Source: a virus. Taken from it: a stretch of DNA of 64,000 bases. Within the stretch, counting starts at the first letter, position 1, and each line of letters opens with the position of its first letter. A program made the translations under genes and the position numbers. The stretch lies in the IMG/VR virus record IMGVR_UViG_3300027826_000001. One strand, given 5' to 3'. Below are positions 6,436 through 34,306 of this stretch, piece by piece. The notes below the pieces were generated by a model. That model did not search any database. It worked only from the letters and a program-made list of their open reading frames with translations, and had not been told where the DNA came from.

Positions 6436-6822
6436 TTATTCAGGACCGCCAATTTTGGTACTATCAGGGCGAAGGTCAGGCGGAATAGTATGTTGATTAT
6501 ATTGTTTTTGACAGTAGGAACATAGGAAAATATAATTATGCTGATGATCCCGTTGCCCAACAATAGCAGACTGTCCATTGGGTTTCTTATGGGGACAGTA
6601 AGCTTGTACTGCTTCTTCCTGTTTTCGTGCCTTTTCCATCTGAAGTGCGGCATCTAATCGCGCCTTCTTATGTGAATTTTCTGCTTCTTCCTGCTCTTTA
6701 ACCTGCTTCGAAACCTGCTTCAACTGGAGAGCCAGCAAAGCCTTTCTAAGTTCAGCTTCTTCTTGGTCCACCGGCAATTGATGCTCGGAAGGAATAACTA
6801 GAGTTCCATCGTTTTTAGGCAT
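6436..6822 (-). CDS. hypothetical protein (128 aa), coiled-coil N-terminus plus Cys/His C-terminus
   Basis: ORF track. E/K/Q heptad-like N-terminal half, then YCPHKK...CSYCQ. Confidence 0.7.
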   Translation of the reverse strand: MPKNDGTLVIPSEHQLPVDQEEAELRKALLALQLKQVSKQVKEQEEAENSHKKARLDAALQMEKARKQEEAVQAYCPHKKPNGQSAIVGQRDHQHNYIFLCSYCQKQYNQHTIPPDLRPDSTKIGGPE

Positions 6823-9828: not shown

Positions 9829-10103
9829 TATCCGTAAAGAATATCGAAAGGATCTACCCACTTAGCCGGAACATCTTTACCCGTGGCCGGAATAACTTCG
9901 ATAAGAACGTTAAGAGGTTTCCAACCGTTAAATTTAATCTGCTGTGCTACAGTTTCCTCGGCAATTTGAAAGGAACTTGTACCACCAACATGAACACCCG
10001 AGGGAAGAGTTCCACCGTCAGTAGTTTTGATATTAACCACTTCGTAACCCTTCGCCCGAACCTGATCCAACATCGGTTTCAAATCTAGTACACTCAAAAG
10101 CAT
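9828..10103 (-). CDS. hypothetical protein (91 aa)
   Basis: ORF track. Start overlaps the GT2 stop at 10103. Confidence 0.7.
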   Translation of the reverse strand: MLLSVLDLKPMLDQVRAKGYEVVNIKTTDGGTLPSGVHVGGTSSFQIAEETVAQQIKFNGWKPLNVLIEVIPATGKDVPAKWVDPFDILYG

Positions 10104-10816
10104 TATCTCTGTTCTCCTGTTTCTATCATAACACCGTTCTCTGTACGTGTGGGTTCTAGTCCTGCTGGAAACACATAGTCTTGTACTGACAATACGTTAG
10201 GTATGATATGGTGGCTCTCGACCCTAGGTGCCCAATATACCGGAATCCCTAACTTCTTGCAACGGAAGCAAAAAGAATAATCCTCGGAAAGACCCGGTAT
10301 AATTTGAAAGGGTTTCTCGTTTAATTCGGCCATCATACGACGTAGGACAGATTTATCCACCAAGAGACAACCACCGGGCATAGGCCCTACAGATATGGCA
10401 TCTGCATTTCTATCCCACGCAGTAATGGGCCGTACTTTCAAACCTTTATCTGTCTCTTCCCACATATTTGCAACGGGAGCATGGGGCGGAAATTTATATT
10501 GATACGTACCGCTAATAACTTGCGCCTTATATTTCTTCTTTATCCTCATAAGACGCTCTAATAGGTCGGGGGCAAACACATGGTCAGTGTCCAGCATTAA
10601 AAGCCAGTCTCCCTGTACCTTCTCGACAATTTGATTACGCGCTAATTCATGCCAAGAAACGGTAGGAGTTTCATAGTGAATGTATTTGCCTTTAGGAAGT
10701 TTAGATTGTTCGTAGATAAGTAACTGGGCTAGAGAGTCTAGGAACTTTGATCCGACATTATCAGCCCACATACGGGAAATGGTGCCTGCTGCTCCGGTAG
10801 TATGTAGCTTACTCAC
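10103..10816 (-). CDS. family-2-like (GT-A) glycosyltransferase
   Basis: DxD motif in WLLMLDTDHVF. Also GGCLLV and EDYSFCFRCKKLGIPVY, typical of GT2. Confidence 0.75.
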   Translation of the reverse strand: MSKLHTTGAAGTISRMWADNVGSKFLDSLAQLLIYEQSKLPKGKYIHYETPTVSWHELARNQIVEKVQGDWLLMLDTDHVFAPDLLERLMRIKKKYKAQVISGTYQYKFPPHAPVANMWEETDKGLKVRPITAWDRNADAISVGPMPGGCLLVDKSVLRRMMAELNEKPFQIIPGLSEDYSFCFRCKKLGIPVYWAPRVESHHIIPNVLSVQDYVFPAGLEPTRTENGVMIETGEQR

Positions 10817-11510
10817 GATAGTAAACCTCCGTACTGGCTGTATCTCCGTGGTTCATAAGTTGCCGGAAACCGTTATAACCATACTTATCTTTCATAGTTT
10901 TTCGAAACTTGTCAATATCACCAAAGGCATAATGAACTTCCATAAAAACCATCCACGAACCTTTTAATATCTCGGGATAGTTTTTAATAAAGTCAAACTC
11001 TGCGCCTTCAATATCACATTTGATAATATCGTAGGACTGTTGGCCGATATTATTTAGGTCTATGTAATCTACTTTTATCTTTGGATACTTACTTTTAAGA
11101 GGAACTACTGAACATGTAGCATGGTTGGCACTTGCAGTAATATACGCTGAACCTTTCTTTTTGCCTATAAGTCCAAAGTATGGACGAATATTACCATCCC
11201 ACTTAGTCCTTTCAGTCAGGACATCATAGTTATCCGGGTTACCTTCCACGGAAAAGATCGTATATGGCTGTCCAAACTTCTTGCATCTATGGGCCGCGTA
11301 GAGACTAAAGTACCCGATATTAGCCCCTAAGTCCAATATCTTCGCGGTACGGGCCGGGTTTACTTTAGGGAAGATAGGATACTCGTTATTAACAAATATG
11401 TCACAAAATACCACTAAGTCATGTTCGTTTTTAACTTCCAAGGGTACTCCGGTATCTGTGACCCATTTGAAAGGTTTAAAAGTAGTGGGAACTTTTTCCA
11501 AGAAACTCAT
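10809..11510 (-). CDS. FkbM-type SAM-dependent methyltransferase
   Basis: AKILDLGANIGYFSLYAA SAM-binding motif. Length and layout fit the FkbM family. Confidence 0.75.
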   Translation of the reverse strand: MSFLEKVPTTFKPFKWVTDTGVPLEVKNEHDLVVFCDIFVNNEYPIFPKVNPARTAKILDLGANIGYFSLYAAHRCKKFGQPYTIFSVEGNPDNYDVLTERTKWDGNIRPYFGLIGKKKGSAYITASANHATCSVVPLKSKYPKIKVDYIDLNNIGQQSYDIIKCDIEGAEFDFIKNYPEILKGSWMVFMEVHYAFGDIDKFRKTMKDKYGYNGFRQLMNHGDTASTEVYYRE

Positions 11511-12580
11511 TACATGTCTTCCTTAATCCATATATCCCACTGATTTACTACTTTTTCCCAGTCAAACCTCTCTAACGCCCATTCCTGCATTTCCTTACGT
11601 GTCTTTTCATCCCGACAGTGAAAGGCTTGTTCCAAAGCATGTAACCAGTTAGTACGTACAAGTTCCGATTTCTGGGGTATTCCCTGTACCATCCAACCAT
11701 AATTAACATTCTCTCGTAAGGCCCATAAGTTATTGGTAACCGGCCATGCTCCTAAGGCTTGTGCTTCCATAGAAGTAATACACGAGGTTTCGGGAAAATC
11801 AGTAGGATGTGCCCAAATATTGGTTCCCCTCCAATATTCATAAATACGATGCTGATTTTGTCGGCCTACAAAATATACACCCGGTTGTTTAGCTAGTTGC
11901 TGTAATTCTATTTGATATTGATAACGCCAATCTCCAGTACCCGCAAGTTTAACAATAGCCTCCATATTATCAAACCCATACGCTACATAGATTTCAGCCT
12001 TGGGATTTATCTCCCGGATACGAAACCAGTTCTCAAGTATTAATTTAATACCTCTATCCGGTGAGGATGGGAAGAAAAGGCGATTATAGTTACGTTTAAC
12101 TTGTGACCGCAGTCTAATACTATTGGATCGTATACCATTCGAAGAAATATAAACTCGCCCACGTAGTTCGGGATACTTAGATTCGGTATAGTTCTTATGG
12201 TCTTTACACAGACATATGTACCTATCGACCTTAGCCAACCGTTCTTTAGTCCATAACCCTTCGTAATCAACATCTTGGGCTATAAACCACCATTTGGCCT
12301 TACTATGTTTGTCCAAATCGAACTTAATAGGGTCCCGGTACCAGATATATAGACCATTCTTGCTACTTACAGCCTCGTCTACATGTCGATAGGGAACTTT
12401 ATTATGCATAGAAGGCTTTTCGACCGGCGTATAGGACTTTATCTTATAACCCCTATTCGCAAGCCGGTAAGCCATCTCAATATGTGAAGTCTCCGACCCA
12501 CCGATACCCTTAGTCCAAGGATTACGCCAATCCCAAGGCTCAAGGGACATAGAAGATATAAAAAAAACGGGCTTAGTCAT
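11510..12580 (-). CDS. GT-B fold (GT1/GT4-like) glycosyltransferase
   Basis: C-terminal HPTDFPETSCITSMEAQALGAWPVT resembles the EX7E region of GT4 enzymes. Confidence 0.7.
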   Translation of the reverse strand: MTKPVFFISSMSLEPWDWRNPWTKGIGGSETSHIEMAYRLANRGYKIKSYTPVEKPSMHNKVPYRHVDEAVSSKNGLYIWYRDPIKFDLDKHSKAKWWFIAQDVDYEGLWTKERLAKVDRYICLCKDHKNYTESKYPELRGRVYISSNGIRSNSIRLRSQVKRNYNRLFFPSSPDRGIKLILENWFRIREINPKAEIYVAYGFDNMEAIVKLAGTGDWRYQYQIELQQLAKQPGVYFVGRQNQHRIYEYWRGTNIWAHPTDFPETSCITSMEAQALGAWPVTNNLWALRENVNYGWMVQGIPQKSELVRTNWLHALEQAFHCRDEKTRKEMQEWALERFDWEKVVNQWDIWIKEDM

Positions 12581-12590
12581 ACTCTAGGAA

Positions 12591-12619
12591 AGTATAACAT
12601 ACCCGTTCTTAAATGTCAA
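12591..12619 (-). promoter_or_regulatory. consensus sigma70-type promoter for the GT-MT-GT cassette
   Basis: Minus strand TTGACA (12619..12614), 17-nt spacer, TGt-TATACT (12599..12591). Only 10 nt separate the -10 from ATG 12580, so the mRNA is near-leaderless. Confidence 0.7.
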
Positions 12620-25995: not shown

Positions 25996-26024
25996 TTGAC
26001 ATGACCTCCACCTTATGGTATGCT
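25996..26024 (+). promoter_or_regulatory. consensus promoter of the plus-strand island
   Basis: TTGACA 25996-26001, 17-nt spacer, TGg-TATGCT 26016-26024. ATG 26030 follows only 5 nt after the -10, so the mRNA is leaderless. Confidence 0.7.
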
Positions 26025-32817: not shown

Positions 32818-34149
32818 TTAAAGTTCCTTAATATCTTGTGGGTCACTTTCCGCCGTCTCAATATCTACCGTCCCTTTGTCCAACTGATCGGACTCGTATT
32901 TAAGGAACGCAAAGTTTTTAATCTTGAAGGGTTCGCAGGAATATAGTTTATCAGCTTTCACTACTACACCTTCTGCGGGGACTTCGTTATTATTGAAAAT
33001 ACAGGGTAAATCGCCAAGATATTCCTTTTCCACGTCTTGCAGGAAATCACTTTGCCAGTCCTGTATTAAACCCGGCTTTGTAGTACAGAATTTACTAGCC
33101 TTTCCATAATAGTGCTCAACCACCGTATGCAAGCCCCATTTTTCACAAGCTTCTTTAATTTGGGGCCAAGAGTATTCTGTTACTTGTCCATCAGTATCCG
33201 TATGGGTAATACGATATACAATAAACAAGTGACTACCCTTTTCACAACCATAATGATAACCCGGTTGAATAGGACTTCCCTCCGGGGTATAGCCCACTAT
33301 CTCGCCGTACACAGTAACGCCTTTAGGCAGGACAGGGAAAACTTCCTTTCCCACGATACCCCAAATATCTGAGGGGTAGAAATGTACTGCGGTATGACGT
33401 TCCTCTTGGGCTATACCCTTTACGACACGTCGGGAGGACCATATATACTCGTAACAAGTATCTTGAATACGGACGCCTACTAGCTTTAGCAACTTTTCGA
33501 ACCAAGATAGCGGACGCTTACACAGGACGTTTGCGTAGACAGCGGATGTCCCATGCCATTTGTCAGTAATACTAATGATATCCCATGGGTTAATACGGTG
33601 TACGTTTTTCCGAAGTTGCTCCGTGTCTACATGGAAATGGAACTGTCCGTCTACAATACGATCTTCAATACGGGGAGCTTTACGACCCTGCTTATCACGC
33701 GTGGAAGCGGGATTATGGGCCGGTACGTACTTACGGCATATCTCATGGTCCCCCAGGGTATCGAATTCACTTCCTAGGGGCAGTTCTCCAATATTAAGAT
33801 AGCTTAATGCATCCTGGGGTATCCAGAAACCTTCTGACTTGTGGCCGCGAAACTTGACCGCCTTAACACGTCTGGATTGTTCAAAGAAACCACCACGGGC
33901 AAGTGGGTCTACATTTCCCCATTCGGCCTTACGATAGAGATTGTTATGGGATACAAATTCGTGGGATAATTGGCATTCAAGGGGAAAGTAAAGACCGATG
34001 TCTCCGGGTTGACATTCTTTCCCTACTATGATATGATTACCCTGCACTATGGCACCCTTGACGTTATCGCAATTAGGCAGGGTTACAAATTTGTCCAATG
34101 CTACCACCGTGGCACAGTAGTTTGGGTTTTTTGGGGCGGCTAGTTTCAT
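32818..34149 (-). CDS. ATP-dependent RNA ligase (Rnl2/Rnl5-like, DRB0094-type N-terminal module)
   Basis: Nucleotidyltransferase motifs I DKWHGTS, III VYGEIVGY, IV EGVVVK, V FKIKN. OB-like N-terminus (VVALDKF...GDIGLYFP). I prefer ATG 34149 because the ORF-track GTG 34173 lies inside the promoter spacer. Confidence 0.75.
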   Translation of the reverse strand: MKLAAPKNPNYCATVVALDKFVTLPNCDNVKGAIVQGNHIIVGKECQPGDIGLYFPLECQLSHEFVSHNNLYRKAEWGNVDPLARGGFFEQSRRVKAVKFRGHKSEGFWIPQDALSYLNIGELPLGSEFDTLGDHEICRKYVPAHNPASTRDKQGRKAPRIEDRIVDGQFHFHVDTEQLRKNVHRINPWDIISITDKWHGTSAVYANVLCKRPLSWFEKLLKLVGVRIQDTCYEYIWSSRRVVKGIAQEERHTAVHFYPSDIWGIVGKEVFPVLPKGVTVYGEIVGYTPEGSPIQPGYHYGCEKGSHLFIVYRITHTDTDGQVTEYSWPQIKEACEKWGLHTVVEHYYGKASKFCTTKPGLIQDWQSDFLQDVEKEYLGDLPCIFNNNEVPAEGVVVKADKLYSCEPFKIKNFAFLKYESDQLDKGTVDIETAESDPQDIKEL

Positions 34150-34163
34150 AATGCTATGAGGAT

Positions 34164-34192
34164 AGCGTAACACAGGTGAGATAGATTGTCAA
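34164..34192 (-). promoter_or_regulatory. consensus promoter of the RNA ligase gene
   Basis: Minus strand TTGACA 34192..34187, 17-nt spacer, TGt-TACGCT 34172..34164. 14 nt to the ATG, so the leader is very short. Confidence 0.7.
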
Positions 34193-34249: not shown

Positions 34250-34278
34250 TTGACAATCCATGCCTCTTGTGTTAGTCT
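34250..34278 (+). promoter_or_regulatory. consensus promoter of the main plus-strand operon
   Basis: TTGACA 34250-55, 17-nt spacer, TGt-TAGTCT 34270-78. Confidence 0.7.
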
Positions 34279-34306
34279 TAATTTAAGCTTGAAAGGCGAA
34301 CGAGGA

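Follow-up and report, generated by a model that had tools for sequence, protein, structure and literature searches.

Glycosyltransferases linked to a small jelly-roll protein in a probable SU10-like podophage: a candidate virion glycosylation module with a promoter nested in a terminator-like hairpin

Introduction

Why a phage should carry sugar-transferring enzymes inside its head gene cluster, and upon what those enzymes act, is the question raised by a locus in IMG/VR virus record IMGVR_UViG_3300027826_000001, of which a stretch of 64,000 nucleotides (nt), here called the window, was analysed. On its minus strand a cassette encoding a GT-B glycosyltransferase (GT), an FkbM-family methyltransferase and a GT2 glycosyltransferase lies directly downstream of a small open reading frame (ORF), p172, which itself follows the major capsid protein (MCP) gene. 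A first-pass annotation of the sequence had offered two readings: glycosylation of the virion with a methylated sugar, or early remodelling of host surface polysaccharide. Comparative genomics now gives the better support to the first of these, although its target has shifted; the capsid protein has no insertion associated with the glycosyltransferases, and it is p172 that tracks with them instead. The explanation favoured here, given about an even chance of being correct, is that virion surface proteins, and most probably those of the p172 family, are glycosylated in the cytoplasm. ORFs are labelled by their number of amino acids (aa; p172, p159, p155, p147, p144), and the related loci compared are referred to as L001-L059.

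Linkage of the cassette to p172

p172 (12627−13145, minus strand) is a 172 aa protein with a predicted all-β jelly-roll fold, proposed to be a head-accessory protein and a candidate glycan acceptor. Its association with the enzymes was assessed in 21 loci fetched by the p172 profile alone, ten of which have at least ~1.3 kb of uninterrupted downstream sequence; a GT-B gene lies downstream in all ten (L018, L023-L027, L029, L032, L033, and L035). The two genes also occur together in L004, L006, L012-L017, L051-L053, L055, and L059, and on a contig with three tandem p172 paralogues ahead of a single GT-B gene; GT2 accompanies GT-B throughout the loci compared. An apparent exception is L031, where a LAGLIDADG endonuclease is inserted after p172 and the contig then ends. 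In L014 and L024/L025 the p172, GT-B, and GT2 genes stand as a separate plus-strand island amid minus-strand genes, and no capsid homologue was detected near these islands; since the unit stays together there, what the enzymes are linked to is p172 rather than the capsid gene.

The methyltransferase slot is occupied by an FkbM enzyme in the window, L012/L013, L004, L052, and L059, by a class I S-adenosylmethionine (SAM) methyltransferase in L015-L017, L029, L032, and L051, and is empty in L014, L018, L026, L027, L053, and L024; the order of the cassette genes also differs among relatives. Judged by this gene content, the module has a core made up of p172, GT-B, and GT2, and a methyltransferase that is optional and interchangeable between non-orthologous families. 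Fused forms occur as a 735 aa protein combining GT-B, SAM methyltransferase, and GT2 in L007-L011, as GT-B with GT2 in protein P0105, and as GT-B with a methyltransferase in P0116. In the higher-GC phage contigs L007-L011 (9995−14033) a HAD phosphatase gene and two further GT2 genes come after the fusion, which adjoins a 1357 aa serine/threonine (S/T)-rich fibre-like protein; p172 is not nearby, and scanning the genes around the fusion in L007 against PHROG gave no useful information.

Every gene from position 1 to ~26 kb of the window is on the minus strand, and in the direction of transcription the order is terminase (17886−19706), portal (15586−17862), a scaffold-like protein (14285−15205), MCP (13163−14152), p172, and then GT-B. 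The MCP, the upstream anchor of the module, matches PHROG 1357 (major head protein, E 3e-24) and has a weak Pfam Phage_capsid_4 match that falls under the cut-off; its relatives share 40-90% identity, and the MCP and p172 genes each have a Shine-Dalgarno AAGGAA. The recurrent order in relatives is terminase, SU10-type portal, scaffold, a capsid protein of ~330 aa, a ~170 aa protein, GT-B, and GT2, with or without a methyltransferase, and an SU10-type adaptor later. In a scan of the relatives' proteins, Pfam SU10_portal and SU10_adaptor matches sit on homologues in L012, L015, and L051-L053, with which the window portal shares 43-66% identity and the window adaptor 45-58%. By these protein likenesses the virus is tentatively placed among uncultured SU10-like podophages of soil and freshwater. 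At the nucleotide level the region matched none of 50,697 phage records, and the only relatives available for host inference in genome collections have at most 31% identity and are scattered over assorted metagenome-assembled genomes.

An unrelated 42.6-kb podophage (L039, MW202524; 1656−11396) also has, in this order, a capsid protein, a 165 aa protein, and a glycosyltransferase cluster with a methyltransferase; its capsid protein is not homologous to that of the window. The 165 aa protein, encoded after the capsid gene, was considered as a p172 homologue and rejected, as the two are not homologous.

The p172 family as candidate acceptor

p172 belongs to no Pfam or PHROG family, and a protein search of the 50,697 phage records gave no match. 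Relatives in 1.84 billion representative proteins number only 79; because nearly all of them are stand-alone proteins of 150-190 aa, p172 is not considered to be a fibre-tip domain. In an alignment of 40 homologues only two blocks are invariant, SASGFVSG (residues 71−78) and the core of S-x-G-SAAAG (148−155), the latter containing the GSAAAG loop at residues 150−155; serine accounts for six of the 13 invariant columns (hypergeometric p = 0.003). The AlphaFold2 (AF2) model of p172 has a predicted local distance difference test (pLDDT) score of 74.5 and a predicted template modelling (pTM) score of 0.70, with the lowest confidence at residues 151−154 of the GSAAAG loop; predicted viral structures sharing the fold include the knobs of collagen-like and fibre proteins.

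A weaker tier of p172 relatives keeps an N-terminal (D/N)R...SND arm, with 'TNPL.L' and 'TRTASP.TE' replacing the two loops. These loop-less members are encoded in the structural block: L058 has one immediately behind the capsid gene, L056/L057 have theirs amid other structural genes, and L001/L003 have theirs between the scaffold and capsid genes; no GT-B or GT2 homologue was found within ~6 kb of them. The capsid proteins of GT-carrying and GT-less loci are collinear and share an identical C-terminus, SSIG, with no GT-associated insertion or C-terminal extension. Because no glycosyltransferase lies near the loop-less members and the capsid proteins are collinear, it is the loop-bearing p172 family that varies with the enzymes, and the case for its being the acceptor or an obligate partner is built chiefly on this. 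L005 was left out of the GT-less set because a GT2-like gene of another kind lies just ahead of its capsid gene. L005 (46% capsid identity; 7604−8389 and 9910−10972) is without p172 and GT-B and has unrelated proteins rich in serine, threonine, and alanine after the capsid gene.

A second member of the family, p159 (22737−23216, minus strand; 159 aa, hmmsearch E 1.6e-62), has both invariant loops and misses the N-terminal arm; it is encoded among S/T-rich β-proteins upstream of the terminase gene. This arrangement is kept in L054 and L055, and no p159 homologue was found in GT-less L003. The tandem paralogues of the three-copy contig all retain the loops. An alternative is that other virion proteins, such as S/T-rich fibre-like proteins or the capsid protein, are glycosylated instead; p172 would then be inherited alongside the enzymes as a structural component, or as an adaptor bringing them in, and not as their substrate. 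Many S/T-rich β-proteins are encoded at 19.8-25.7 kb, the fused enzyme of L007-L011 adjoins very large S/T-rich fibre-like proteins in the absence of a nearby p172, and the targets in mycobacteriophages are capsid and tail-tube subunits (PMC11600133). This alternative is nevertheless decidedly unlikely; capsid proteins are collinear and share their C-terminus with or without glycosyltransferases, and the p172 family alone co-varies with the enzymes.

The three enzymes and their possible substrates

The GT-B glycosyltransferase (11510−12580, minus strand; 356 aa, ATG start) is of the retaining GT4 type and matches Glycos_transf_1 at 32.4 bits against a Pfam gathering score of 26.4. The methyltransferase (10809−11510, minus strand; 233 aa, ATG) is a SAM-dependent enzyme of the FkbM family, matching Methyltransf_21 (PF05050) at 38.2 bits against a gathering score of 22.7 and NCBIfam fkbM_fam (TIGR01444) at 51.3 against a cut-off of 37.7; the GT2 (GT-A) glycosyltransferase (10103−10816, minus strand; 237 aa, GTG) matches Glycos_transf_2 (PF00535) at 36.9 bits against 23.3. 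With all three above their gathering scores the identities assigned by the first-pass annotation hold, and so does its account of overlapping genes: the GT-B stop and the methyltransferase start have 1 nt in common (TAATG), and the methyltransferase and GT2 genes overlap by 8 nt. Shine-Dalgarno sequences precede the methyltransferase (AAGGAAG) and the GTG of GT2 (GGAGG). None of the enzymes has a transmembrane or hydrophobic segment, the highest 19-residue hydropathy being 1.12 or less.

The start codon of GT-B is backed by homologues, among which S9, L13, and W16 are nearly invariant; its first strand (residues 5−9) has a pLDDT of 92 in the AF2 model. The model as a whole (pLDDT 96, pTM 0.92) shows a GT-B fold of two Rossmann domains, and Foldseek matches it to MshA, GlgA, PimA, BshA, TarM, and GtfA at E ~1e-10 to 1e-13 with TMq mostly 0.6-0.7; the fold neighbours are retaining GT4/GT5 enzymes with widely differing acceptors, and they include the protein O-GlcNAc transferases GtfA and SdgB. 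In the E264-x7-E272 motif E264 is invariant, and E272 lies within PETSCITSME. GT2 displays DTD(H) at residues 76−79 and SED at 177−179, with D76-T77-D78 invariant in ten homologues. Single-protein sequence searches of solved structures returned only noise and profile searches weak, generic GT4/GT2 matches; for GT2 the profile search gave one weak match, to the Listeria teichoic-acid rhamnosyltransferase RmlT (E 0.02). There are 622 GT-B homologues, all metagenomic and many on contigs of 56-72 kb, and neither the methyltransferase nor GT2 has a tblastn match among the 50,697 phage records.

The GT4 and GT2 fold classes include the teichoic-acid glycosyltransferases TarM and, through the weak match just given, RmlT, which bears on the second reading of the first-pass annotation. 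Under this reading the enzymes, made from a host-type promoter, would work at the inner membrane face on lipid-linked intermediates of lipopolysaccharide (LPS), exopolysaccharide (EPS), or teichoic acid, altering the glycan that serves as phage receptor; superinfection would be blocked, or progeny would not be trapped on debris, and p172 and p159 would be co-evolving glycan-binding proteins, explaining the linkage. Jelly rolls of the TNF/C1q-like kind include lectins and fibre tips, the cassette promoter belongs to a class found in the non-structural region, and the island that holds the cassette also encodes membrane-segment proteins, p144 and p155. The p172 family, however, is stand-alone, and no member caps a fibre shaft. 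It is mostly encoded immediately behind the capsid gene, and its invariant Ser/Ala/Gly loops are atypical for sugar-binding sites and are kept by all tandem paralogues; p144 and p155 do not share the conservation of the cassette. There is also no seroconversion-type flippase or membrane glycosyltransferase, as the region of the window that was scanned has no Pfam match for the flippase GtrA, the bactoprenol glycosyltransferase GtrB with its membrane segments, or the polytopic GtrC of the gtrABC type. Remodelling of host glycans, with the effect on superinfection or progeny release proposed for it, is considered less likely than virion glycosylation but stands as a serious rival to it.

Phage GT-B enzymes that glycosylate DNA are known (cited in PMC12619734), and the closest GT-B match in an annotated record carries the label glucosyltransferase; sugars might then be added to modified bases of the phage DNA, evading restriction. 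This is very improbable because a scan of the larger non-structural ORFs, confined to the window (all but ~3 kb of the genome), shows no hydroxymethylase or thymidylate-synthase-like gene. The genes also lie in the head module, tied to a structural-type protein, and Pfam places the GT-B enzyme in GT1/GT4-type families rather than with the T4 DNA glucosyltransferases.

A promoter ahead of the GT-B gene

A predicted σ70-type promoter with an extended -10 element, TTGACA-N14-TGT-TATACT, lies ahead of GT-B at 12591−12619 on the minus strand. TTGACA (12619−12614) is followed by a 17-nt spacer ending in TGT, by TATACT (12596−12591), and by TTCCTAGAGT up to the ATG at 12580; the -35 box begins 7 nt past the p172 stop codon. 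The promoter agrees with the σ70 consensus at 11 of 12 hexamer positions and has the TG. The gap of 10 nt to the ATG and a predicted leader of ~4 nt, with no Shine-Dalgarno in the sequence ahead of the ATG, bear out the near-leaderless promoter described by the first-pass annotation.

The strict pattern TTGACA-N14-TGN-TANNNT occurs nine times in the window against 0.03 expected, and none of 100 shuffles reaches nine. The other eight sites are spread over 25996−56419 in the non-structural region, which holds RNA ligase, polynucleotide kinase-phosphatase, DNA polymerase, and helicase-like genes; the GT-B site is the sole one inside the structural block. Several are near-leaderless in the same manner: at 25996−26030 (plus strand) the ATG of a 60 aa ORF is 5 nt beyond the -10 box, before RNA ligase (34149−34192, minus strand) an ATG at 34149 is 14 nt beyond it, and at 34250−34289 (plus strand) a TTG is ~10 nt beyond it at a short ORF starting at 34289, for which hicA is a label of the earlier annotation only. 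The start of RNA ligase is likelier to be 34149 because the listed GTG start at 34173 falls within the promoter. The stated kinship of the cassette promoter with those of RNA ligase and 'hicA' is borne out by this pattern, and the MCP gene has upstream, as had been noted for the capsid genes, an extended -10 element (TGGTATATT) without a TTGACA-like -35 box. Early expression of the cassette is suggested by the class to which its promoter belongs. A -10 element also stands 6-11 nt ahead of the GT-B start in L012, L015, L026, L029, and L024, the spacing being 6-8 nt in the last four.

On the plus strand, a TTGACA-N17-TATAAT sequence with 12 of 12 consensus positions at 6508−6536 lies inside the minus-strand gene 6436−6822; it may be an antisense promoter or a chance match.

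A terminator-like hairpin overlapping the promoter

The promoter overlaps a terminator-like element at 12560−12610 (minus strand), composed of a hairpin at 12563−12610 and a U8 tract at 12560−12567. The 5' arm of the hairpin holds the -10 box and the 3' arm holds AUG-ACU-AAG-CCC, the GT-B start with codons 2-4; directly after the hairpin, the U8 tract lies within codons 5-8 (V-F-F-I). Folding of the read-through RNA (12612−12545) yields a 20-bp hairpin of -21.6 kcal/mol (z -5.68), and none of 200 shuffles folds as well. The base of the hairpin is GC-rich (CGGG/CCCG) and followed by U8, in agreement with the sequence pattern of an intrinsic (Rho-independent) terminator; a simple terminator scanner overlooked it. 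RNA beginning at the predicted start site, ~12584, misses the 5' arm and folds with only -0.6 kcal/mol.

Three relatives have hairpins of the same design built from other sequences. One is present in L012, its arms changed together with codons 2-3; in L055 a 16-bp stem has TATAAT at its apex followed by UUCUUUUU (z -3.9), and L059 has a 16-bp stem of the same design (z -6.4). L015, L026, L024, L006, and L051 have a separate terminator of canonical form behind p172. The recurring logic proposed from these sequences is that the head transcript would end after p172 and that a host-type promoter would restart transcription with a leaderless or very short-leader GT-B message. Such a layout argues against expression of the cassette solely within the late polycistron and would fit a catalytic, rather than a structural, dosage of the enzymes; the structural genes downstream would need read-through or a further promoter.

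The hairpin with its GC base and U tract resembles known intrinsic terminators, and the consensus -35 box, the TGn, and an AUG a few nt from the predicted start resemble leaderless extended -10 promoters; the cI message of phage lambda transcribed from PRM is a leaderless mRNA. The window differs in that the promoter is nested inside the hairpin, both signals being in the same DNA, with the U tract in codons 5-8. A literature search for promoters nested within terminators turned up no relevant example.

The accessory island

Downstream, the island ends with tRNA-Met (8295−8372) and tRNA-Asn (8392−8465), both on the minus strand inside the structural block and just before the conserved p147 gene; a tRNA-Met just upstream of the p147 gene is also found in L001, L015, L026, and L029. 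The junction of p172 and GT-B has received insertions: a LAGLIDADG-like ORF in L031 (1031−1750), a GIY-YIG-like ORF in L033 (4997−5689), a 24-gene tRNA array in L035 (1623−4618), and one tRNA in L006. In GT-less L001 the same island has TTGACT-N17-(TGT)TACATT ~130 nt upstream of the tRNA-Met (promoter and tRNA stretch 9015−9248). The tRNAs, the endonucleases, and the L001 promoter lead to the view that the stretch is an accessory island with its own host-type transcription.

A more general explanation is that the promoter serves tRNAs and assorted genes within a late operon and that the glycosyltransferases are one cargo among others, with a small-molecule or other non-virion target. The L001 promoter before tRNA-Met and the role of the p172/GT-B junction as a hotspot for homing endonucleases and tRNA arrays speak for it; the strict linkage of p172 with GT-B, which persists after relocation, and the -10 element that stays 6-11 nt from the GT-B start in several lineages are left unexplained. 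A generic accessory island is accordingly given only a small chance of being the full account.

Between the cassette and the tRNAs lie p144 and p155 (8466−9318, minus strand), two proteins that each begin with a membrane or signal segment and for which no conservation with the cassette was seen in the relatives' loci. A 91 aa ORF (9828−10103, minus strand) follows GT2, its start sharing 1 nt with the GT2 stop (TAATG); it has no Pfam or PHROG family match, and tblastn over the relatives' loci found none. Beyond what the first-pass annotation had noted, the comparison thus adds a larger conserved module, an interchangeable methyltransferase, a hairpin overlapping the promoter, and a promoter in the island of GT-less L001.

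Proposed function of the module

In the favoured explanation, glycosylation of virion surface proteins in the cytoplasm, the three enzymes would be the catalytic half of a two-part module, of which the other half would be the small stand-alone jelly-roll proteins p172 and p159. The soluble GT4-type GT-B and GT2 would build a short glycan in the cytoplasm onto virion surface proteins, the likeliest acceptors being serines of the p172-family loops; the methyltransferase, if present, would O-methylate a sugar, and particles would be released bearing a glycan-covered surface. Transcripts from the capsid and p172 genes would form the hairpin and U8 and should terminate, burying the GT-B AUG, and the host-type promoter, with its -10 box in the 5' arm, would start RNA inside the hairpin to give a nearly leaderless GT-B message unable to refold it. 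The methyltransferase and GT2 would be translated by coupling, and expression of the enzymes would thereby be uncoupled from that of the abundant head proteins. What the analysis establishes is the identity of the genes, the folds, the linkage, the correlation of loops with enzymes, the promoter class, and the hairpin with its conservation; the presence of p172 in the virion, its acceptor role, the start site, termination, and timing are each predicted from sequence and models. In its most specific form, the proposal is that SU10-like podophages carry a dedicated glycoprotein system in which the p172 serine loops are O-glycosylated, and in some cases methyl-capped, by co-inherited GT4 and GT2 enzymes with or without a methyltransferase, the enzymes being dosed separately by a terminator-nested promoter; this fuller version is held only tentatively.

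Several lines of evidence converge on virion glycosylation and together leave it at roughly even chances: the linkage of p172 with the glycosyltransferases and their joint relocation, the correlation of loops with glycosyltransferases, the serine excess, the fusions, the methyltransferase swaps, the lack of transmembrane segments, the mycobacteriophage precedent, and the promoter/hairpin regulation. A number of points weigh against it. The GT-B fold is silent on the acceptor, since small-molecule, lipid, polysaccharide, and protein glycosyltransferases match about equally. The place of p172 in the virion is suggested by gene position and by the fold of a model of moderate quality, whose matches to solved structures are weak (TMq ~0.3-0.4; of the TNF/C1q/ExsFA and viral jelly-roll kind), and its invariant loops may instead serve the structure or contact the capsid. 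With many loci coming from related phages, the linkage counts do not represent independent events. The GT-less set comprises three lineages only, and nucleotide and protein searches of the 50,697 phage records found no cultured phage with these genes. As GT-less L001 has a similar promoter before tRNA-Met, the promoter may act for the entire island and not for the cassette in particular, and it may be older than the glycosyltransferase cargo. Insulation is not universal because L053 has no gap between p172 and GT-B, and a further promoter for the structural genes downstream, needed if termination is efficient, was not identified.

Comparison with known systems

To our knowledge, virion glycosylation in phages has been shown to date in actinophages only. 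PMC11600133 and PMC12363180, citing Freeman et al. 2023, describe mycobacteriophage virions glycosylated by phage glycosyltransferases (Che8 gp110, Corndog gp38, and Myrna), an O-methyltransferase adjoining three glycosyltransferase genes in cluster O phages, and actinophage virion glycans that shield particles from antibodies. The likeness to the window lies in phage-encoded soluble glycosyltransferases, sometimes with a methyltransferase, and in virion proteins in the cytoplasm as the substrate proposed here. In contrast, the window GT-B has no mycobacteriophage match (tblastn, 50,697 phage records), its capsid protein has no GT-associated C-terminal extension, and a podophage has no tail tube; the mycobacteriophages are actinophage siphoviruses or myoviruses, whereas the window probably belongs to an SU10-type podophage in which the enzymes are tied to a dedicated small protein family and have a predicted function. 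By these differences the module is a putative functional analogue of the mycobacteriophage systems, not a family member.

The wall-teichoic-acid glycosyltransferases of prophages or hosts (TarM of GT4; TarS, TarP, and RmlT of GT2) also combine both fold classes in soluble enzymes, and TarP is of phage origin; however, the likeness is confined to generic catalytic cores with 10-16% identity, and the oligomerisation and acceptor-binding domains of these enzymes of 490-620 residues are missing from those of the window. The chlorovirus PBCV-1 encodes its own capsid glycosylation enzymes, including a glycosyltransferase-methyltransferase protein, and shares with the proposed module a virus-encoded cytoplasmic glycosyltransferase and sugar methylation on a jelly-roll virion protein; it differs as a eukaryotic giant virus with N-linked glycans on a double jelly-roll major capsid protein, and homology to it is not expected. 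Small head-accessory proteins are known in lambda gpD and the phi29 head fibre gp8.5, which are small and encoded beside the capsid gene, as are p172 and its homologues without the loop motifs; p172 differs from these in having no sequence match or convincing fold match to solved decoration proteins, and its location in the virion is a prediction.

If the proposal is true, glycan-coated capsids exist well beyond actinophages, and phage glycan coats would have to have arisen more than once, this being a second system, unrelated to the first, in environmental podophages. It would raise the question of the role of such a coat outside an animal host, for example as an aid to adhesion, a shield against proteases or drying, or a decoy. 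Being small, the proposed pair of enzymes and substrate is testable in E. coli without knowing the host; the promoter inside a terminator would be a compact switch from high structural to low enzyme expression, reusable as a synthetic insulator.

Other features

In L053 (1−536) the gene in the terminase position has intein and LAGLIDADG Pfam matches. In the non-structural region of the window, RNA ligase (32818−34149, minus strand) and polynucleotide kinase-phosphatase (37544−38431, plus strand) are likely a tRNA-repair pair.

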